64,000 nucleotides of DNA from a virus. Shown here piece after piece: positions 4,096-64,000 of this stretch; the first letter of the stretch is position 1, and each line of letters starts with the position of its first letter. Location: positions 10,400 through 74,399 of the IMG/VR virus record IMGVR_UViG_3300027891_000005. One strand, 5' to 3'. Below the pieces are notes generated by a model. The model had not been told where the DNA came from. It made no database searches and was given only the letters and a program-made list of their open reading frames with translations. The translations under genes and the position numbers were made by a program.

Positions 4096-4106
4096 CGGCT
4101 TTGCCG
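4096..4106 (-). promoter_or_regulatory. Hairpin motif A (GGC-AAA-GCC)
   Basis: CGGC AAA GCCG, ~36 nt upstream of the annealing-protein start. Confidence 0.5.
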
Positions 4107-9928: not shown

Positions 9929-11347
9929 TTACCCCTCGCACCGGACGCTCCGGTCGCAGGGGTCGCACCCCTCGCTGCCCATCTCGTCGTCCGTAATCTC
10001 TTCATCGACGCCGGCCATGTAACGGGCGTTAGCCTTAGACTCCTTTTTAATTTCGTTTATCTCTGCTTCATCCAAGTCAACGCCCAAATCGTTTCCCAGT
10101 TCTTCCTCGCGGTTCAGATATAAAATCAATTTGTTATAAATAAAATCAAAAAACTTTTTGTTTTTTTGGAGATAAACCCGGAACTCTTTGAGCCCGTTAA
10201 AGGCCAATTTATTCCCATGCTTATCTACCAAGGTTTTATTCTTGTCCGGGTAATATATCCAGGAGCCGCGTATCTCAACGAGCGGCTTCCATGTGCCTTT
10301 TGATACGATGAATACGTCCGGCATCTCGCGCTTAATAGCGGTAGCAAGGTCGGCATATATATTAATGCCTTTGCCGTATTCGGCGTAATATGTGCATTCC
10401 TTGAACGGGTGCCCTGTAGCCGCACGGTTCTTTGTTATCTTTGCGTGTATGGATATGACTTTCTTCGGGTCTACGCCGCTTTCTTTTTTGATGAATTCCC
10501 GCGTCAGGCGTATGCGCTGCCACGCCCAAAAACGAAGCGCACGGCCTCCGCCTGTGGTCGTTGAATTCCCATACATAGACCCTATATTGTCCCGCTCTTG
10601 GTTTGTGAAGATAACAGTTGTGCCGGTTTTGTCGCATAAAGCATTTGTTACCCGGAAAAACTTGCTTAACATCCTTGCCTGCACGGCAATGACAGACTCG
10701 CCCATGTCTTTGGACATTTCTTCTTTGGGGGTAAGGCCGGCAACAGAATTAATGCCGATAAGATCAAACACGCCGTTCGATATAGCCTCCCTAATCCTGT
10801 CAAGGACCCATTCGGCGCCTTTGTCTGGGTCGAACGGTATAAAATGAAAGCGGTCCTTGTCTATGCCATGTTTCTTTATGGCGTCGCCTAAATCAACGGA
10901 AAACTCCGTTTCAAGCCAGCCGGCAATAAAATTTGGGTCCTCTTTTTGAATCTTGCCTATCGTATTTAAAATAAGTTCAGTTTTCCCGGAATTTTCCGGG
11001 CCGTACAGCTCTATGACTTTGCCTTTTACGAACCCGCCGCAAAGATGTATGTTCAATTCCAATGACGGCGTAGGTATAAATGTCTTTTTTGTCTTCTCAA
11101 CGGCTTTTTGGCCGCTTATAATCGTTCCTTCGCCGAATTGCTCATTTATTTTTTTTTCGAACTCCAATACCCGCTGCTTCTTATTTTTGTCTATGGGCAT
11201 AACTTTGGCGCCTTCCAAAGGGATATTTTCAAAATCATAGTCGTCCAGGCCTGCCGGCATTGCTGTAGCGCCTTCGGCCTCCGGCGGCTTAGTTTTTTTC
11301 ACGGATGTTATGGCGTCAAGATTTTTTTTTGGCCTTCCCCGCTGCAT
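9929..11347 (-). CDS. recA: RecA-family recombinase with N- and C-terminal extensions
   Basis: GPENSGKT, QARMLSK, FTNQER, TTGGGRAL. Confidence 0.9.
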   Translation of the reverse strand: MQRGRPKKNLDAITSVKKTKPPEAEGATAMPAGLDDYDFENIPLEGAKVMPIDKNKKQRVLEFEKKINEQFGEGTIISGQKAVEKTKKTFIPTPSLELNIHLCGGFVKGKVIELYGPENSGKTELILNTIGKIQKEDPNFIAGWLETEFSVDLGDAIKKHGIDKDRFHFIPFDPDKGAEWVLDRIREAISNGVFDLIGINSVAGLTPKEEMSKDMGESVIAVQARMLSKFFRVTNALCDKTGTTVIFTNQERDNIGSMYGNSTTTGGGRALRFWAWQRIRLTREFIKKESGVDPKKVISIHAKITKNRAATGHPFKECTYYAEYGKGINIYADLATAIKREMPDVFIVSKGTWKPLVEIRGSWIYYPDKNKTLVDKHGNKLAFNGLKEFRVYLQKNKKFFDFIYNKLILYLNREEELGNDLGVDLDEAEINEIKKESKANARYMAGVDEEITDDEMGSEGCDPCDRSVRCEG

Positions 11348-11683: not shown

Positions 11684-11940
11684 TTGATCACCGGCTCCCA
11701 TCTGTTGTGTATGGGGTCCCATTTAAAATCCCTATAAAAACGCTCAAGGTCAACGGACGCCCCTGTGTCATCCGCACGGCACGGCTGCCAATAATAATCC
11801 GTGCCACGCAGAAAAATTATTTTTGCGTAGTACCCCAGCTCCCGGCATTTTTCAACTGCCGAGGCCAAGCCGGCCGCACCGGTTGCTCCGGTCGCACCGG
11901 ACGCTCCGGCGGCAGAACATTCAAACGTATAGCCAGCCAT
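11659..11940 (-). CDS. Hypothetical protein with a GA-rich repeat
   Basis: GGAGG SD; AGASGATGATGAAG encoded by GC-rich repeats. Confidence 0.5.
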   Translation of the reverse strand: MAGYTFECSAAGASGATGATGAAGLASAVEKCRELGYYAKIIFLRGTDYYWQPCRADDTGASVDLERFYRDFKWDPIHNRWEPVIKWIKKMAI

Positions 11941-12868: not shown

Positions 12869-12883
12869 TAAGGCTTTGCCTTA
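12869..12883 (-). promoter_or_regulatory. Hairpin motif A, compensatory variant
   Basis: TAAGGC AAA GCCTTA upstream of ssb. Confidence 0.55.
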
Positions 12884-38682: not shown

Positions 38683-39585
38683 TTATTTATTTTTGATTGA
38701 ATTTTCGTAACTCCATTCACCAAAATACTTTTCTTCGGCTTCTTTTCTAGCTTTTATAGCGTCGTCTTTATCTTTAAAACGCCCTAAATAAATTTGACGG
38801 TCATTAAATCTTATCGAAGCCAACCATTTATTTTTGCTTTTATCCCAATAAACTCCAATAGTTCCGGAGGTATTTCTTTTTACAGATTGTGTGTTAAAAC
38901 TATTTTGTTGTGGCGTTGCTATACGCAAATTTGTTTTCCGGTTATCCAAAGTATTATGATCCTTATGATCAACATGCGCATCGTCTGCTGGTTTCATTAC
39001 TAACCTATGCATTCGTATATTTTTATCATTAAAACCTGCCACCAAATAACCTTTTTCATTTACGTGCCAGCAATGGTTGCTTATAATGTCGTAATCCTCT
39101 TTGTCAAACCAAAATTCAATCCCTTCATGCGTATACCCAATGCCAAATTCGCCTGTTAAATCATATTTGTTGCGTTCGCCCCTTAAATTTTCGGCATATT
39201 CCTTTTTCAAGCAGCCACATGAGCGTGTATGGCCTGATATTAAACTAGACTGCAATATAGCTTTAATAGTAGCTTTTTCGCAATCACATATACAATTCCA
39301 CATGCTTATTCTATTTCCATTTGAACAAATATAATCTTCAGCTCGATCTACTACTTTTAATTTCCCAAAAATCTGGCCTGTCAAATTCATATTTTTTAAA
39401 CAGCCGCATGATTTGGTGTCACCTTTACGTAATTCTTGACTTCTTGCTGTCACTGAACCACCGCAGTCACAAATACAGTTCCATTTGGCGACAACTTGGC
39501 CGCTTGGCTTAATATAATTCTCCGCCCTGCTTATGACAGTTAGAAGCCCAAATCTTTTTCCTATTAAATCAATAAGTTTGCCCAT
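38683..39585 (-). CDS. HNH endonuclease with an AP2 domain and duplicated Cys-rich N-terminal repeats
   Basis: CICDCG..TKSCGC x2; MHR..VDHKDHNTLDNRKTNLR; SGTIGVYW..KWLASI..YLGRF. Confidence 0.9.
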   Translation of the reverse strand: MGKLIDLIGKRFGLLTVISRAENYIKPSGQVVAKWNCICDCGGSVTARSQELRKGDTKSCGCLKNMNLTGQIFGKLKVVDRAEDYICSNGNRISMWNCICDCEKATIKAILQSSLISGHTRSCGCLKKEYAENLRGERNKYDLTGEFGIGYTHEGIEFWFDKEDYDIISNHCWHVNEKGYLVAGFNDKNIRMHRLVMKPADDAHVDHKDHNTLDNRKTNLRIATPQQNSFNTQSVKRNTSGTIGVYWDKSKNKWLASIRFNDRQIYLGRFKDKDDAIKARKEAEEKYFGEWSYENSIKNK

Positions 39586-44304: not shown

Positions 44305-45180
44305 TCACACGCCAGCCGTTCTTTCAAGTATAATAAACTTATTTTTAATTTCTTTAACTTTTTCTTCCGGAATCTCCATTTGATTTGCAATTTCAATATC
44401 CGACATGCCTAAACGGACCATTACGCGTATACCTTTTTCCAAGCCCATTTCCAAGCCCTTTTCTACACCCTTATCTTCCGCATACTCAAGTTCTGCCAAT
44501 CTATCAGCTTCCGCTTTCTCTAATAAATCCAGCACGGTTCTCTCCTCCTCGTTCATATTGGCATAATCAGCAATTTCAGCGGCTTTCTGGATATAGTCGG
44601 GGGCCTCCGGAGGTAGATCCCTGTCCAGGAAATAATCCCGCCAATATCTTTGATTTTCTGTAAAGAAATTAGGTTTCGTGTACTCAAAATACGCGATAAT
44701 AAAATCAACAGGAAATGGCTTATTGTGCCTGCGGTCCCAAAATTCAAATTGCCGCAGACCATCGTCGTCATCAGCAAACATGTAAAACCCTAATATATTT
44801 ATACCATAAATCGGCTTAAGGTCGCCATACTTTTTATATTCCCGATGATAATTCTCAGTAAAGGTAATAGCTGGGTAATATAAAGACCTTTCTGCAAAAA
44901 AATTCGTCCCGCGGACTTGCAATTCGCTTACCAGGTTGGCTTCCTCATCAGAAACCGTAATATTGGCGGATACGTCCTTAATGGTCTGCTGGAGCGTCTG
45001 GAGCCCGTTCTCTTTTATCATTTTCGTGTAATTGCTTATAGAATACGGCTGTTTGAAATTAAGTTCGGCTATATTAATATCCAGCATATCCTTTGCAAGG
45101 CCGATTAAAGGATCTGTAACCCCGTCAGTACAGAAAGCCTTTTTAAACAGTAGGTCTTTTATTCTGCTAACTTTTTTCAA
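44305..45180 (-). CDS. Rpn family PD-(D/E)XK nuclease / putative transposase
   Basis: KDLLFKKAF, ELQV, PIYGINILGF, C-terminal EKG repeats. Confidence 0.85.
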   Translation of the reverse strand: MKKVSRIKDLLFKKAFCTDGVTDPLIGLAKDMLDINIAELNFKQPYSISNYTKMIKENGLQTLQQTIKDVSANITVSDEEANLVSELQVRGTNFFAERSLYYPAITFTENYHREYKKYGDLKPIYGINILGFYMFADDDDGLRQFEFWDRRHNKPFPVDFIIAYFEYTKPNFFTENQRYWRDYFLDRDLPPEAPDYIQKAAEIADYANMNEEERTVLDLLEKAEADRLAELEYAEDKGVEKGLEMGLEKGIRVMVRLGMSDIEIANQMEIPEEKVKEIKNKFIILERTAGV

Positions 45181-54072: not shown

Positions 54073-57000
54073 CTAGAAGTCATAAGCAGACAGATCTTCA
54101 AGCCCGTCTATTTCTTCTTGTGTTAAGACAACCGTATAGCCCATGTCGGCGGCCATATCTTCGTAATTGGCTTCATCGGCGGCATACCAATTGGAATTAT
54201 TATCGTCCATAAAAAAAGAACCGCCAGGGATGTTATCCCCAGCGGTTTCAGCCATGACGCCATAACCGGTATCCCTGCCGGTATTAATGAACGTCACGAT
54301 GTTTGCGGTGCGATAAACCCTGAATTCCTTTCCATTTTCATCCTTCTTTGTGTAATATTCTGTGTTGCTTTTGCCGAATACCGGGATGCAGACAAACTTA
54401 AGCTCTTTACCGATAAGCGCGGCGATATCGCTCATAGTGGAAACGTTTTTGTCTGCGTCGAATATTGTACCGACCCACTCGCCGTTTACCATGAGGACAT
54501 ACTTCAAATTGCCATTCATGGTTGTCGGCGCGATGGTTGTCACGCTTCCCTCGGCCTGCATACGCGTAACGGCATAGCGGGAATCCTTGGCGCCTTCCGC
54601 AATCTCGGATGTTTTCCAGGATACCTTGATGTTGTACTCGCCCTCGGCGGCCTTCTTATTGGCCTTCTTCATTACAGGCACGATAAGCTTTACACTGCCG
54701 TTAGTTGTCCCGTTGACTTCATACAGCCCATCGGCGATACCGGAAACCTTGTCTAGGAACGGCTGCCCGATGCCTTCGGCTCTGCACTTGCCGTCTTCCA
54801 CTACTACGCGGGCCGTATCGGGAGGCACATTTATACTCAGCACACGGTAGTCCGTATTGCTGATGCTCTTAGCGACCGCATGGATGCCGTCAAAACAGCA
54901 CATAAACACAAAGCTGTTGATGCCTTGGTTATTGTGCCCTTTCCTCATCAGGCGTTCTTCGCCTACGCAATAGGCGGCAAGTGCCAAGCTATACCTGTCG
55001 CCTGACAAAGCGGCAAGCTTGTCCGTATACTCCGCAATGACCTCTTTACGCAGCCCCATCATCTCTTCCTTAGAAAGGGCGCGAGACGAGAATATTGCCC
55101 TGATGTCGGACGCATAGGCGCTCTCAAGGGCGGCCGCTTCTTCTTTGATCCTGTCGTATTCGTTGATGTCAACAAGCTCGCTTTGTTTGTAAGACTCCGC
55201 AAGGCTATAGCAGCAGCTATAATCCGGTTCGATGGTAGCGATTTCGTTAGCGACAAACGCATGGATGTGGCTCATGATGTCGTTAGTTTCATACATAAGG
55301 TCGATCTTGCGCAACTTCTTTTTGCCGACCTCTTTATCGGTAACAATGCCGACCCTCTGGCCACCGGTTTTAAGCGGCACGTTGGATCCGTGGTTGAAGC
55401 GCTGTACGCGGACAGATACGCGGTTGCCATTCCTATCCTCATAATCTTTGTCCTCAGCAATGTCGAATTTCTTTTCCGTCTTGCCTTTGATATCGGCAAA
55501 CCAGCGGGTCACGAACGGTATCTGGTGTTCAGGCCCGAAATTAGGCTTATAGCCGCTCTTAGGGCTGTCTATCTCAAGCTCGCTCATCGTAGTGAGGATA
55601 ACACTCAAGAGATCGAAATAGGCCCTTGCTTCCGCTACAGCGGCCGCGTACGCCACGGGGTCGTTCGCAAGTTTGCGCAGGTTCCTAAATTTGTTATACG
55701 GCGTCTGGGGCTTCTCGCCCTCATGGAACCAGCTTGGCGTATTGATAACGTACTGTGAGAATTTCACGTACGCTGTCAACGCTTCCTCATCATTCAATAA
55801 ACCCAGCACGTTAGTATTGGCGTTTATTATAAGACCGACGCGGCTCTTGACGAGGTTCTTGCGGATCTGCTCTACAAAAACGTCATACTTAAGGGCAACG
55901 TTGTTCCCTTTAGCGCCTGGGTTGTCGTTATAGATAATCACGTCGGATGCCTTAAAGTCATCGACAAAGATTTTTGTTACAAAACAGAAGTCTCCGTCGA
56001 AATCAGCTCCTGCCATACCAAGGGCAGTCGAGTCATAAGCGTTGAATACAACAAGGTCGTTCATAAAACGGTACCAGTCAATAACAACACCGTCTTTGCC
56101 CTTTCGCGTGAATGCCGGCTGGATGCAGTTAAGCTTCCTAATCTGCCTCCAGTTGGTAAGGGGCGTACGCATAGCAAGGGCATGTCCCGCATAGCCGCCA
56201 AGATAAAACTCTCCGGATTTGAGCCCCTGCTCTTTGTCAGGCTCTTTCATAACCGGTGTGTCGCTTTCATTGAACGTGTACTTGCGGGTCACTTTCCCAT
56301 CCCCATCTATATATTTCTTAACCCTGAGGTTGTTGAAATATTCAACGGGATCGCACGCCATAATGTGAATGCTGCCCGGCATTGGCACATGGCCGTTGAG
56401 CATATTCTTTTCTATTGTCTCTTTCCTGCGCATGATGCTGCGTACAACCCATGAAACCGTAAGCGCTGTGGCGGGGTTGGCTAATATGAATTCACGCAGT
56501 TTGTCCGTGGTTATATTCTCTTCCTCGTCCTCTACGATTTCGATGGAGTTTTCATCGGTATATACATAGGGGACGATTTGGAGGAACGCCAGCGCGTTCT
56601 CTATTGATGACGTGCAATTAAGGATCAGGTCTTTAATACGCTCCAGGTATGGCGTGAAATGATCAGGTCCCAGTTGGTTGTTAAGGGTTGTGATCATCTG
56701 GTAGTTCCAAGACACAAACTCGGTCGGCTGCTTGGAGATGTTGGCTACCAAGAATTCCGCCATTGTGGGGTCGAAATCCGACTTCCACATGCCGCCTGTG
56801 AAAATAACGTCTTCGCATACGGCGTTCTTGGTATAGGAACGAAAGTCAAATACAACCAAAATGCCTTTAACCTGGCCGTACCTGATCTGAAACATTGACG
56901 GGAGGCGCTTTAAGCCCATAGCTTTTGCGAGCCTCTTGGCCGTACAGGGAAGCATGAACCCCATGCCGTCATTAGCCGATACGGTTTTCCTCATTTGTTG

Positions 57001-57840
57001 CTTAAACACTTGAAGTTTAGCCATTGCCTTCTCTTCATCGGTACCTGTATCCATAACCCCTTTATATAATCCTTCAAACTTTTCATTGTCTTTGGAATCG
57101 TAATAGGTCAGGGCGGTGAATTCTTTCTCGATTTCTAAATCGTCGGCGCGGGCAAAAGTAAAATCAAAGCCCTTTATGATTGTGCCGTTCGTACCGGACA
57201 GTCCTTTGCGCGAAATGCTCTTGTGTACAGGCTGGAATTCTTCGCGCAGGTACTTGGCGTTGCAGGTAAGCGTTACTGCCGTATCGTCGAAATCGAGCGT
57301 TGACATATCGACTTTGCAAAGGCGGTTTTTGCTACTGGTTTGATCGCTTACCCTATAGATAGCGAACTTTTCCAGTTTCTCACGGCCTTCAACCTTGCAC
57401 TTTACAAACGTCCCTTGCGGCATTACGCCGATTTCCTCAAAAGCCGCAACCGGGAACAATAGGCCGCTGTAACACAGGGCATTTTTCATCGCCACGTCGT
57501 CTTCGTTGTTATCGTTGCCGCCAGACGCATCGGCCTGGACGACATTCTGCATCCAAAGTTCGCCGTCAATTTCTTCCGCGCACTTGTAAGCGCCAAACGA
57601 CATGCCGCCTTTTACTGTTTTCACTACTGACGGGCGCGTATAGCCCCTGCCGTTCTCAAAGTAGAACCTTTTGTGTTCAGGCCTAAGCTCGATAACATCC
57701 GGGTTTACCATTACAAAATCCTTGCCTTCGCGGTTCTTGTAGATAAAGGCGTTGTTTACTTCTGTTCCATCGTTTAAAATCGTTTTGCCGAACACGTCAA
57801 ATACGAACGACCAAGGCTGCCTCTTTTCGATCTGATACAC
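54073..57840 (-). CDS. YonO-like single-subunit RNA polymerase (cellular RdRP / double-psi beta-barrel family)
   Basis: NDGMG, FQIRYGQVKG, MRTP, AGADFDGD (DxDGD), EIDSPKSG; GTG at 57840 after AAAGGTG. Confidence 0.88.
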   Translation of the reverse strand: MYQIEKRQPWSFVFDVFGKTILNDGTEVNNAFIYKNREGKDFVMVNPDVIELRPEHKRFYFENGRGYTRPSVVKTVKGGMSFGAYKCAEEIDGELWMQNVVQADASGGNDNNEDDVAMKNALCYSGLLFPVAAFEEIGVMPQGTFVKCKVEGREKLEKFAIYRVSDQTSSKNRLCKVDMSTLDFDDTAVTLTCNAKYLREEFQPVHKSISRKGLSGTNGTIIKGFDFTFARADDLEIEKEFTALTYYDSKDNEKFEGLYKGVMDTGTDEEKAMAKLQVFKQQMRKTVSANDGMGFMLPCTAKRLAKAMGLKRLPSMFQIRYGQVKGILVVFDFRSYTKNAVCEDVIFTGGMWKSDFDPTMAEFLVANISKQPTEFVSWNYQMITTLNNQLGPDHFTPYLERIKDLILNCTSSIENALAFLQIVPYVYTDENSIEIVEDEEENITTDKLREFILANPATALTVSWVVRSIMRRKETIEKNMLNGHVPMPGSIHIMACDPVEYFNNLRVKKYIDGDGKVTRKYTFNESDTPVMKEPDKEQGLKSGEFYLGGYAGHALAMRTPLTNWRQIRKLNCIQPAFTRKGKDGVVIDWYRFMNDLVVFNAYDSTALGMAGADFDGDFCFVTKIFVDDFKASDVIIYNDNPGAKGNNVALKYDVFVEQIRKNLVKSRVGLIINANTNVLGLLNDEEALTAYVKFSQYVINTPSWFHEGEKPQTPYNKFRNLRKLANDPVAYAAAVAEARAYFDLLSVILTTMSELEIDSPKSGYKPNFGPEHQIPFVTRWFADIKGKTEKKFDIAEDKDYEDRNGNRVSVRVQRFNHGSNVPLKTGGQRVGIVTDKEVGKKKLRKIDLMYETNDIMSHIHAFVANEIATIEPDYSCCYSLAESYKQSELVDINEYDRIKEEAAALESAYASDIRAIFSSRALSKEEMMGLRKEVIAEYTDKLAALSGDRYSLALAAYCVGEERLMRKGHNNQGINSFVFMCCFDGIHAVAKSISNTDYRVLSINVPPDTARVVVEDGKCRAEGIGQPFLDKVSGIADGLYEVNGTTNGSVKLIVPVMKKANKKAAEGEYNIKVSWKTSEIAEGAKDSRYAVTRMQAEGSVTTIAPTTMNGNLKYVLMVNGEWVGTIFDADKNVSTMSDIAALIGKELKFVCIPVFGKSNTEYYTKKDENGKEFRVYRTANIVTFINTGRDTGYGVMAETAGDNIPGGSFFMDDNNSNWYAADEANYEDMAADMGYTVVLTQEEIDGLEDLSAYDF

Positions 57841-57941
57841 TAAAAACACACCTTTCATAATTTTATTTTTAAAGCAATAAAAAAAAGGCATAGTTTAACG
57901 TCACCCATGCCTGTTCGGACGATTTGCCAGGACTGTTGCCC

Positions 57942-58814
57942 TTATGCAACTTTAACGCGCATTTCTTTTGCAATTATAAGGGCCTTTGCCTTCTGCGCCT
58001 CCCATACAGCCAGCTTCCCGCTGTCTTTCTCTTTCCTTGACGCAACGAGGCCCGCTTTGACCTTGTTGTATTTCGAGAAAAAAATTAAGGCCTCAGCAGC
58101 CATACCGGCAAACTGGGCCTTTTCAATCTGCAATTTCTCCATGAGCGCGTGGTCTTTGACCTTCACATCCCACGAGTTGTTCCTCTGCACCTGATATGCG
58201 TACGCCACCTGCGCCTTTCCTGCGTACAGGTTGATAAAATCCATGCCGTTGCGCCCTATGCCATGTGTGAGATGGTATTCCGGCGCGGCCGCATCCTCTT
58301 TTGCCGGGCCAACAAGGGGATCGGGCTTGAAGGGGGCCCATTTGCCGTTCAGATACTCAAGCGAGAACTTTTCGCTCTCTTCTGACCCAGGCGCTACCTC
58401 CCTGGCGTCAACTACGCCTGACAAATCAGCGTCTATATCAGCCACGAACAGCCTGCTCATCTGAGCGGAAACGAAACCGTCCCTGTTGATTTGTGCAGCG
58501 TTAACAGCGTGCGCGTTTTGATACTTTACTTCCTCAGGCAGATCCACAGAAATAAACAGGGCCCCCTGATGAAGCGCGCTTGTATACAGGCTTGTGTCAT
58601 CCATATCAGCCGTTAAAATTTCATTGCCAGTTTTAATTGTGATACTCATCTTTACTTCCTCCTTTTTATTTTCAATGATGTACCGCTGTACCTTCGCTTC
58701 GATTTCCTCGTCTAACGCGTTGTTTAATAAATTATTGAACGCTTCGGTGTCCAGGTTGTTACAGACCATCTCAAGCAGGTCTATCCTCTCTTCGTTTGTC
58801 AGTGCTTTTGCCAT
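57942..58814 (-). CDS. Hypothetical protein
   Basis: 290 aa; AAGGAG SD. Confidence 0.7.
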   Translation of the reverse strand: MAKALTNEERIDLLEMVCNNLDTEAFNNLLNNALDEEIEAKVQRYIIENKKEEVKMSITIKTGNEILTADMDDTSLYTSALHQGALFISVDLPEEVKYQNAHAVNAAQINRDGFVSAQMSRLFVADIDADLSGVVDAREVAPGSEESEKFSLEYLNGKWAPFKPDPLVGPAKEDAAAPEYHLTHGIGRNGMDFINLYAGKAQVAYAYQVQRNNSWDVKVKDHALMEKLQIEKAQFAGMAAEALIFFSKYNKVKAGLVASRKEKDSGKLAVWEAQKAKALIIAKEMRVKVA

Positions 58815-59168: not shown

Positions 59169-59417
59169 ATGGCTTTTTCTTTTCAAATTCCAAAACCAAA
59201 AAACCTGGGCCAAGTGTTGGTACAGACATCGAAGACCATTCGAGACGGCGGCGGAACATTCTCCGGAACTGAAGAATACGGCGGTTTCACCGGAAACGGC
59301 GTCAAGGGCACATATGCGGTCGGAGACCAAATCTCGATTACCATTACCGAAAAGCCGTTCCTGGTGCCGGAATCACTTGTAAAATCGACAATTACAGACT
59401 TTTTCAAAGGAGTATAA
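59169..59417 (+). CDS. Small hypothetical protein
   Basis: AAGGAG SD; ITITEKPFLVPESLVK. Confidence 0.65.
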   Translation: MAFSFQIPKPKNLGQVLVQTSKTIRDGGGTFSGTEEYGGFTGNGVKGTYAVGDQISITITEKPFLVPESLVKSTITDFFKGV

Positions 59418-59608
59418 TATTTTTAGCGACTGGGGAAATGGATGGGTCGGCTTTACTATAGAATCCAATTGAATGGATATTGAAAGGGCAAAAAAAAAGC
59501 GGCGGATTATAAATATAGTTATTTTAATAAATTTTAAAGAATAAGCCTTTCATACGAATTTGCGGCGCAAAGGGTGAGCATTAAGAAAATAGGGATTTAA
59601 AATAAAAA

Positions 59609-59646
59609 ATGAAGGCGCGTAGCCTTTCTTACGCGCCTTCATTTTT
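59609..59646. terminator. Bidirectional intrinsic terminator
   Basis: ATGAAGGCGCGTA / TACGCGCCTTCAT with flanking A and T runs. Confidence 0.8.
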
Positions 59647-59721: not shown

Positions 59722-60051
59722 ATGGATATAAATTTGGTTAATTCAAATAAGGGCACTATACCGGGATCTGCCAGCCGGCTCAGGAGCAACAGTTCTAATG
59801 CCGTAATAAGCAACACCGATATACCGAAAAGCAGCTTCGGAAACAATGTCGGGACTATAAATGCGACTATCCCTAAATCCAGGTCGGTAGGTTTGGCGCG
59901 AAATGCCGGCGCCTCGTATGGGTCCACCGTATTAAGCAACCGTACCGACAGGCGCGGGGCCGTAGACAACATCAAGCTTAAGCATCAGCAGATGTTTGGT
60001 ACCGGGACAGACAATATGCGTAATACCAAAAACCCTTTTGTTATTAATTAA
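59722..60051 (+). CDS. Hypothetical late-region protein (Ser/Asn-rich)
   Basis: AAAGAGGTG SD. Confidence 0.6.
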   Translation: MDINLVNSNKGTIPGSASRLRSNSSNAVISNTDIPKSSFGNNVGTINATIPKSRSVGLARNAGASYGSTVLSNRTDRRGAVDNIKLKHQQMFGTGTDNMRNTKNPFVIN

Positions 60052-63690: not shown

Positions 63691-64000
63691 ATGGCCCAGG
63701 CAAGCACAAAAGAGCAGCGCATAGAGCTGGCTATCTTAAACAATCCCGTTTTATGGGCAGAGAAGAACTTCGCCTGGGTAGCGCGGGATTATCAGGTAGC
63801 CCCCCTTCAAAGCGTTAAAAATTCCAGGCAGACCGTCCTGCGGTTCGGCCGCCGCCTTGGCAAATCGGAGATTATAGATATTGCCGTCTTGTGGCACGGG
63901 TTCTGCCAGCCGAACAAAATCCACCAGGACAAATACAATATCTTAATTTTATGCCCATATGACGCCCAGGTGGACCTACACTTTGACCGGCTGCACGAAC
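63691..64000 (+). CDS. terL: Terminase large subunit, N-terminal ATPase (partial)
   Basis: NPVLWAE, RDYQ adenine-binding motif, Walker A RFGRRLGKS, ILILCP..QV. Confidence 0.8.
   Translation, partial: MAQASTKEQRIELAILNNPVLWAEKNFAWVARDYQVAPLQSVKNSRQTVLRFGRRLGKSEIIDIAVLWHGFCQPNKIHQDKYNILILCPYDAQVDLHFDRLHE

Follow-up and report, generated by a model that had tools for sequence, protein, structure and literature searches.

A divergent two-barrel RNA polymerase of a termite-gut phage and the strand-specific DNA hairpins that accompany it as candidate promoters

Introduction

Single-chain RNA polymerases of the PF05183 superfamily are the closest described counterparts of a gene that we report here from the minus strand of a 64,000-nucleotide stretch of viral DNA (positions 10,400 to 74,399 of IMG/VR record IMGVR_UViG_3300027891_000005; "the window" below is this whole stretch). 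The best understood of them is YonO, a processive DNA-dependent transcriptase that transcribes the late operon of the Bacillus subtilis prophage SPbeta and is the only prokaryotic member to have been characterised biochemically; its promoter, and any need for a specificity factor, are still undefined (PMC5467207). YonO-like enzymes have been listed in about 50 firmicute and cyanobacterial genomes (PMC2919709) and for the phages 0305phi8-36 of Bacillus and c-st of Clostridium (PMC7824862). A sequence-only reading of the window had suggested that a clostridial member would be new, which fails because one is already listed for phage c-st; the DNA here comes from a termite-gut metagenome, and only its nearest genomic relatives belong to Clostridia.

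The polymerase of 0305phi8-36, gp99, was annotated as an RNA polymerase in 2007 and is taken as DNA-directed in the genome paper by Hardies et al. (PMC2147016). The text of that paper lists 14 phage-specific 21-bp promoter candidates in the genome arm that holds gp99, proposes them as middle promoters for gp99 while noting that there is no sigma factor, assigns two further proteins as primases, and contains no description of the promoter candidates as hairpins.

The type of enzyme considered here is therefore already known, having been predicted between 2003 and 2010, annotated as gp99 in 2007 and characterised as YonO in 2017. The present gene adds a new and divergent member, which carries a clade-specific C-terminal region and a tail, and this polymerase is associated with a family of short DNA hairpins. 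The window is part of an 89,989-base record judged 42% complete, and its source is a roughly 200-kb-class contractile-tailed phage from the termite gut.

Results

The gene and its family

The polymerase gene occupies the following position:

54073 to 57840, minus strand: RNA polymerase gene, 1255 aa from GTG 57840, Pfam PF05183 at E 2e-15

The minus-strand frame 57891..54073 is unbroken and comprises 1272 codons counted from its first ATG at 57891, which is residue 1 in the numbering used throughout. GTG 57840 is the best-supported start because it is preceded by AAAGGTG and 8 nucleotides (nt), the Shine-Dalgarno context of other genes in the same arm, and because the 1255-aa product that it yields matches a protein present in the protein collection (P0002). 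The N-termini of relatives begin at about the same point, and residues 1-20 of the longer frame are predicted to be disordered, with a predicted local distance difference test score (pLDDT) below 50.

The hidden Markov model of PF05183 (RdRP), the check that the sequence-only reading had proposed, matches residues 299-701 with 56.9 bits against a cut-off of 23.8, and a six-frame search of the record recovers this same match and no second PF05183 gene. All five motifs picked out in that reading are present in the translation: DGMG at residues 308-311, QIRYGxxKG as QIRYGQVKG at 335-343, RxP as RTP at 575-577, DFDGD at 630-634 and DxPKSG as DSPKSG at 775-780. When a family profile seeded from four close relatives was searched against 1.84 billion proteins (E <= 0.001), 524 representative proteins were returned at E 0.001 or better, and since only 23 of these lie at 1e-30 or better, the immediate clade is small. 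Across 77 aligned relatives, D308, G309, R337, K342, G343, K370, R575 and P577 are invariant, and D630, D632, G633, D634, D775 and K778 nearly so. Ruprich-Robert and Thuriaux identified eight residues common to all two-barrel RNA polymerases, in QDE-1 numbering D709, R738, K743, R962, P964, D1007, D1009 and D1011 (PMC2919709); D308, R337, K342, R575, P577, D630, D632 and D634 correspond to these eight with matching spacing, the first three being the counterparts of D709, R738 and K743 in the first barrel. A profile of the 77 sequences finds Arabidopsis RDR2 at E 1e-41 over RDR2 residues 452-1120, bringing DxDGD, FQIRYG..KG and D..KTG into register and placing the metal triad, encoded at nt 55990-56004, opposite the DLDGD of RDR2.

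Predicted structure

An AlphaFold2 model of residues 1-820, built with the 77-relative alignment, reaches a pLDDT of 87.8 and a predicted template modelling score of 0.88, and it is predicted to contain both of the double-psi barrels on which the sequence-only reading had staked its assignment. Foldseek ranks QDE-1 and RDR2 first among the matches to this model (E 4.5e-17 for QDE-1, up to 1e-13), followed by the virion polymerase gp66 of a crAss-like phage (6vr4, E 4.7e-6) and then by the small two-barrel polymerases of Thermus phages. VIA alignments give Z 25.8 to RDR2 (514 residues, root-mean-square deviation (rmsd) 3.0), Z 23.9 to QDE-1 (about 515 residues) and Z 13.7 to P74 gp62; the alignment to RDR2 starts at model residue 21, equivalent to RDR2 residue 374. 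Taken separately, model residues 500-650 align in VIA with the catalytic barrel of bacterial beta-prime at Z about 8.4-8.5 and rmsd 2.0-2.3 over 87-88 residues, and helical residues 790-1014 give Z 8.8 to ZmRDR2 and Z 7.1 to the C-terminal region of QDE-1. From the N-terminus, the layout of the protein is as follows:

57502 to 57813, minus strand: N-terminal beta-rich domain, residues about 27-130 (AlphaFold2 strands 27-121, pLDDT about 90), conserved in the close clade only and without a match in Pfam
56707 to 57009, minus strand: first double-psi beta-barrel, beta-subunit-like, residues about 295-395, with D308, R337, K342 and K370
55972 to 56394, minus strand: second double-psi beta-barrel, beta-prime-like, residues about 500-640, with R575, P577 and the triad D630/D632/D634
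54862 to 55914, minus strand: helical region after the barrels, residues about 660-1010 (from AlphaFold2 secondary structure; the profile aligns here to the C-terminus of RDR2), with a long helix at 745-774 followed by DSPKSG (nt 55552-55569)
54271 to 54849, minus strand: clade-specific C-terminal beta-rich region, residues about 1015-1207, pLDDT mostly 70-88
54076 to 54264, minus strand: acidic, aromatic-rich tail, predicted to be disordered, residues 1210-1272, shared only with P0027

The C-terminal beta-rich region is kept in four relatives (P0003, P0005, P0006 and P0027) and is weaker in proteins like that of 0305phi8-36. For this region, searches of the PDB (by VIA and Foldseek), of Atlas (by features and by shape) and of Pfam brought no convincing match, which does not by itself make it a new fold; its matches in AFDB are the C-termini of other proteins, the top one named as an RNA-dependent RNA polymerase and the rest unnamed or uncharacterised. 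This region may be a specificity or partner-binding module.

By its sequence, then, the gene is predicted to encode an intact single-chain two-barrel RNA polymerase of the PF05183 superfamily. The conserved active-site residues make it very probable that the protein is an active RNA polymerase, and by analogy with its characterised and annotated phage relatives it is probably, with somewhat less assurance, a DNA-templated transcriptase.

Comparison with described enzymes and closest relatives

The sequence-only reading had placed the protein in a YonO/RdRP family, an assignment that holds at the level of the PF05183 superfamily and of a single-chain two-barrel enzyme, with YonO itself a remote relative. 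YonO has 839 aa against 1255 aa here, it aligns over only 60 residues around the first barrel (30% identity, E 2e-5), and it is absent from the tblastn matches in the phage collection at 1e-5. Its gene lies upstream of the SPbeta late operon and is co-oriented with it, whereas the gene described here diverges from the arm that holds terminase, portal, capsid and sheath genes. The sole match in that collection is gp99 (tblastn E 2e-13), annotated as a hypothetical DNA-directed RNA polymerase of 1218 aa. It is 22% identical over residues 178-634 (E 7e-20), with a further match over residues 907-1003 in the C-terminal helical region (E 1e-4), and it is similar in length; in both phages the non-structural arm has the gene near its head, a sigma factor is not found and a phage-specific motif precedes non-structural genes. 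On the other hand, gp99 is without the acidic tail and has a longer C-terminal end of its own, and 0305phi8-36 is a jumbo myophage of Bacillus thuringiensis whereas the phage described here is known from termite-gut metagenome DNA. The best structural matches, RDR2 of Arabidopsis and maize and QDE-1 of Neurospora, share the post-barrel helical region and nearly identical QIRYG..KG, DxDGD and D..KTG motifs, but they are eukaryotic RNA-templated silencing enzymes with other N-terminal domains and without the C-terminal beta-rich region and acidic tail.

The closest relative is a partial one, a 231-aa fragment with 46% identity (P0027). The closest full-length relatives (P0003, P0005 and P0006) have 32-35% identity over about 1150 residues that include the C-terminal beta-rich region, and they are not encoded by phages; they lie in islands of three Defluviitaleaceae (Clostridia) metagenome-assembled genomes (MAGs) and in similar metagenomic contigs, where their neighbours are an SNF2-type helicase, DnaN, SSB, JAB/ThiF, DUF6094, transposases and an integrase. 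These island polymerases have no acidic tail. With sequence patterns of the close clade, no relative was confirmed in IMG/VR viral contigs.

Two of the mobile-element loci show a constant gene order downstream of the polymerase gene, which is always followed by a ResIII/SNF2/Helicase_C helicase of about 1060-1100 aa (13481-16675 in L005, 13860-17165 in L008) and then by DnaN, so that polymerase, helicase and DnaN form a conserved trio there. In the locus of the third Defluviitaleaceae MAG (L016, 10154-12498), a single case, the polymerase gene is spread over at least three frames and there is no AAA triloop.

Strand-specific hairpins in the window

The genes of the window are arranged in two arms. 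The minus arm, to which the polymerase gene belongs, encodes an SbcCD-like fusion, UvrD, RecA, DnaE, MoxR/VWA and an SNF2 helicase, and the plus arm, from about 59.7 kb, holds the terminase, portal, protease, capsid and tail-sheath genes. The sequence GGCAAAGCC occurs in 11 copies in the window, all on the minus strand, against a mean of 0.88 and a maximum of 3 in shuffled sequences. Nine of these copies, together with one GGT-AAA-ACC variant, form stems of 4-7 base pairs (bp) around an AAA loop:

53942 to 53956, minus strand: first hairpin, GGCGGC-AAA-GCCGCC, 117 nt past the polymerase stop codon and 37 nt before ATG 53904, DNA fold -7.4 kcal/mol
4094 to 46767, minus strand: nine further hairpins, all of them preceding minus-strand gene starts, their loops centred on 46760, 44241, 41845, 35454, 33845, 18962, 12876, 9904 and 4101

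Eight of the ten copies stand 33-41 nt from the next start codon and those at 12876 and 9904 about 46 and about 60 nt from it, while the gap to the stop codon before them varies between 0 and 478 nt; because the downstream distance is nearly constant and the upstream distance varies, the hairpin belongs to the downstream gene. No copy lies upstream of the polymerase gene or of the 290-aa gene that precedes it; the 30-kb late arm and the 10 kb at the left end of the record are without one as well. The expectation in the sequence-only reading that a cognate promoter might be identifiable is thus borne out as far as a candidate goes, in the form of a strand-specific hairpin; the promoter role itself is something we infer.

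Hairpins with a short stem and a small loop are familiar as promoters from a different system. The virion RNA polymerase of phage N4, a T7-like enzyme injected with the DNA, uses hairpin promoters with stems of 5-7 bp and 3-nt loops, and the elements described here resemble these in having a short GC-rich stem and a 3-nt loop just upstream of genes. The polymerases differ, since that of N4 is T7-like and packaged in the virion and the present one is a two-barrel enzyme encoded outside the virion module; the resemblance implies no homology, and any mechanism that they have in common would be convergent.

The hairpins accompany the polymerase in other loci

Both strands of loci that hold members of the polymerase clade, and of control loci, were scanned for AAA triloops whose stems have 6 bp or more and include 4 or more GC pairs, with shuffled sequences giving at most 0.12 per locus:

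Window: 5 on the polymerase-gene strand, 0 on the other strand
L005: 3 on the polymerase-gene strand, 0 on the other strand
L008: 2 on the polymerase-gene strand plus one GAA-loop copy, 0 on the other strand
L012: 2 on the polymerase-gene strand, 0 on the other strand
L013: 2 on the polymerase-gene strand, within 1 kb, 0 on the other strand
L015: 1 on the polymerase-gene strand, 0 on the other strand
L002, late arm (control): 0 and 0
L003, left end of the record (control): 0 and 0
L004, 13 kb around gp99 (control): 0 and 0
L011, 40 kb of SPbeta (control): 0 and 0

The Defluviitaleaceae MAG islands and related metagenomic loci carry the same AAA triloop on the same strand, with one to three hairpins per locus. 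Between loci the stem sequences differ, and the AAA loop and its closing Y-R pair are constant. In four loci a triloop lies 8-126 nt past the polymerase stop codon. In L013, the closest relative, the layout is that of the window, with polymerase stop, terminator-like hairpin, triloop, about 39 nt and ATG; in L015 the polymerase stop and the triloop are 8 nt apart, and a further 41 nt separate the triloop from the next start. When all open reading frames (ORFs) were compared by BLASTP, the polymerase was the only protein that the phage shared with the four loci of mobile-element type; with L013 the phage also has one 55-aa ORF in common.

The GAA-loop copy (L008, 20487-20501) contains the heptamer GCGAAGC on the gene strand, which we take to be the classic unusually stable DNA mini-hairpin, and this hints that the DNA form on the gene strand may matter. 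Covariation of paired positions over 21 hairpins appeared strong but was set aside as circular, the sites having been chosen by pairing; the case for the hairpins rests on their enrichment, strand bias, position and co-occurrence with the polymerase.

A parallel hairpin family in 0305phi8-36

The whole genome of 0305phi8-36 contains no AAA triloop. It does contain 19 copies of CGTGCGAACG (CGT-GCGA-ACG), all on the plus strand, against 0.1 expected, which form hairpins with a 5-8 bp stem and a 4-nt GCGA loop some 10 nt ahead of a gene-strand Shine-Dalgarno sequence; the hairpins of the window differ in having a Y-AAA-R loop and closing pair and in standing about 25 nt before the Shine-Dalgarno sequence. 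Seventeen of the 19 copies lie between 144 and 212 kb (144270-211780; loci L017-L027) in the non-structural arm, which is transcribed in the direction of gp99, and the other two are in the terminal repeats, at positions 71 and 212,540. These hairpins are likely to be the 21-bp promoter candidates of Hardies et al.

Position of the gene and search for other transcription factors

The sequence-only reading had the polymerase gene facing away from the terminase module and ending the minus-strand arm. The first of these is correct, the polymerase being on the minus strand and the terminase large subunit starting at 63691 on the plus strand. The second is not: minus-strand genes read from high to low coordinates, so the polymerase gene stands at the head of the replication arm and not at its end, second after a gene that lies directly upstream:

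57942 to 58814, minus strand: 290-aa gene without a family match, first gene of the arm

The reading had also noted no sigma factor and no multi-subunit RNA polymerase gene in the window, and we find the same for the whole 89,989-base record, in which neither Sigma70_r2 nor the beta-prime barrel was detected. A faint Sigma70_r4 match (E 0.03) was considered as a hidden sigma factor and rejected, as it sits in a PD-(D/E)XK transposase. The T7-type polymerase family PF00940 was not found in the record either, in a search for which the control genomes likewise gave no match. Around the polymerase gene, sigma-70-type promoters number 12 against 11.7 expected, a count that is uninformative. Neither a Toprim primase nor a DnaB helicase was found in the 90-kb record.

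Further elements flank the polymerase gene and the boundary between the arms:

54034 to 54055, minus strand: perfect 22-nt palindrome by sequence and fold, terminator-like, without a T run, 18 nt past the polymerase stop codon
58854 to 58865: 12-bp palindrome GGACAATCGTCC / GGACRATYGTCC in the leader of the first minus-arm gene

At the position equivalent to the 22-nt palindrome, the hairpin of L013 is GC-rich and leads into a T-rich stretch. Between the palindrome of the window and the first triloop hairpin lie three direct repeats of CCTTCGGT(A/G)T with an exact 25-nt period (window 53981-54035, minus strand, starts at 54035, 54010 and 53985), which could be binding sites of a regulator. The 12-bp palindrome GGACRATYGTCC also occurs inside a small ORF of the L013 phage fragment (about 881-892) and is therefore conserved across related phages; it is a possible operator. 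At window 59605-59645, between a small plus-strand ORF (59169-59417) and the beginning of the structural arm at 59722, stands a strong bidirectional terminator-like hairpin, GAAGGCGCGTA ... TACGCGCCTTC, with A and T runs on its flanks.

Elsewhere, tandem 9-bp palindromic repeats of the ACCCCTCGC/AGGGGTCGC type occur at window 9940-9990 and 11887-11920 and at the equivalent of window 78583-78650, that is, at the 3' end of RecA, in an intergenic stretch near 11.9 kb and in a gene of the late arm; those in coding sequence probably specify Pro/Gly/Ala linkers of low complexity. Mobile or selfish genes are represented by a PD-(D/E)XK transposase (44305-45180, minus strand), an HNH endonuclease (38683-39585, minus strand) and, in the late arm, a transposase (L002 10645-11730, minus strand) that lies on the opposite strand amid the head-gene module.

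Discussion

A proposed middle-gene transcriptase with hairpin promoters

The proposal that we favour, and that we regard as moderately probable when taken as a whole, is that the gene encodes an intact two-barrel polymerase that transcribes middle genes from hairpin promoters. Transcription by the host polymerase would come first and would cover the 290-aa gene and the polymerase gene, both of which lack a hairpin. The phage enzyme would then use the phage DNA as its template, its D630/D632/D634 triad would hold the catalytic magnesium while R337/K342/K370/R575 bind the substrate, and it would initiate at about ten strand-specific DNA hairpins before the start codons of replication and early-middle genes; we infer both the choice of template and the start sites. 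Expression of the late arm would depend on something else or on an unrecognised signal. If this is how the enzyme is used, its role would be that of a middle-gene transcriptase, as proposed for gp99, and not that of a late-gene enzyme like YonO. Whether the hairpins are the promoters of this polymerase is the part of the proposal that we hold to be evenly balanced.

Several observations weigh against this proposal. The phage DNA was found in termite-gut metagenome DNA runs, and no RNA run is listed with this DNA; a sigma factor or a second polymerase could lie in the part missing from a record that is 42% complete. Of the roughly 40 intergenic gaps in the minus arm, only about a quarter have a hairpin, and because about three quarters are without one, there must be read-through or a further class of promoter. 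A mixture of this kind is described for 0305phi8-36 by Hardies et al. (PMC2147016). The copies at 4101 and 9904 have stems of only 4 bp followed by T-rich runs and could be terminators, and several of the hairpins in mobile-element loci fall inside coding sequence. The yonN-yonK gap of SPbeta, which holds the YonO start site, has no comparable GC-rich triloop, the published coordinate of that site not having been placed on the phage record.

The hairpins may also have a role at the RNA level, as 5' stabilisers, processing sites or translational operators, or may bind another factor, in which case the polymerase would be real and its promoters would lie elsewhere. An RNA element, too, would be expected on the coding strand alone and at a constant spacing before the Shine-Dalgarno sequence, and the scarcity of hairpins among the minus-arm gaps would also suit it. 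We consider this alternative unlikely, however, given that the spacing from hairpin to start is not fixed in the mobile-element loci (83 and about 140 nt), that the polymerase is the sole protein common to the phage and these loci, so that no other conserved hairpin-binding factor is available, and that the phage of a distant family member, 0305phi8-36, has a different and equally strand-specific hairpin family. The transcription of late genes, which the sequence-only reading had mentioned for YonO, would make the polymerase an early product that serves the structural and lysis arm from unrecognised promoters, with the hairpins unrelated to it. The precedent is the only characterised prokaryotic member of the superfamily, which does transcribe a late operon (PMC5467207), and it is in keeping with this idea that no sigma factor for late genes is seen in the record and that the plus arm looks like one long operon from near 59.7 kb. 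It is nonetheless a poor fit and, in our judgement, quite unlikely: the gene heads the replication arm and diverges from the late arm, unlike the co-oriented yonO, the hairpin, which is the sole non-coding element that travels with the polymerase clade, is absent from the 30 kb of the late arm, and YonO is remote, the nearer relative gp99 being linked to middle-type promoters.

If the enzyme were instead to copy single-stranded DNA or RNA, either as a primase-like enzyme that primes second strands at the hairpins or as an RNA-dependent polymerase of the RNA-interference type, then its closeness in structure to QDE-1 and RDR2, which copy RNA, would be accounted for, and structures of QDE-1 do include DNA templates. 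The polymerase genes of the mobile-element loci, which precede genes for a large SNF2-type helicase, a sliding clamp and SSB, would suit such a function, as would the lack of a detected Toprim primase and DnaB helicase here, though missing primase genes mean little because the record is incomplete. Ten hairpins just upstream of ribosome-binding sites fit gene expression and not replication priming, 0305phi8-36 has two primases alongside gp99 (PMC2147016), and YonO is a processive DNA-dependent transcriptase (PMC5467207), all of which makes this alternative very improbable. Still further from what we would expect is a polymerase packaged in the virion and injected with the DNA, as in the N4 and crAss-like phages, for which the hairpins would be early promoters. 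The crAss-like virion polymerase has the same fold (6vr4, E 4.7e-6), and the large extra C-terminal region of the polymerase could be read in this light, as could the resemblance of the hairpins to the promoters of the injected N4 enzyme, but the gene stands in the non-structural arm, far from virion genes, and we think it highly unlikely.

What polymerase and hairpin may mean together

Carried beyond this phage, the middle-gene proposal leads to a broader and more tentative one, which we rate as possible though rather less probable than its opposite, namely that the PF05183 polymerases of prokaryotes as a class initiate at DNA hairpins that are strand-specific and peculiar to each lineage (Y-AAA-R here, CGT-GCGA-ACG in the lineage of 0305phi8-36) and that are read by the C-terminal beta-rich region, with polymerase and hairpin forming a self-contained transcription module able to pass between jumbo phages and chromosomal mobile elements. 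Should the hairpins have nothing to do with the enzyme, the gene adds a further uncultured-phage member to a known family. If class-wide initiation at hairpins is true, it would be convergent with that of N4 and would answer what YonO-type enzymes recognise. The ancestor of all cellular RNA polymerases is believed to have been similar to the single-chain two-barrel enzymes, and here a short candidate element recurs with such an enzyme in loci that are otherwise nearly unrelated, with a counterpart in a culturable Bacillus phage, which reduces the promoter question to one protein and a 15-nt hairpin. Hairpin promoters of this kind, if they are real, would make the pair a compact orthogonal transcription system.

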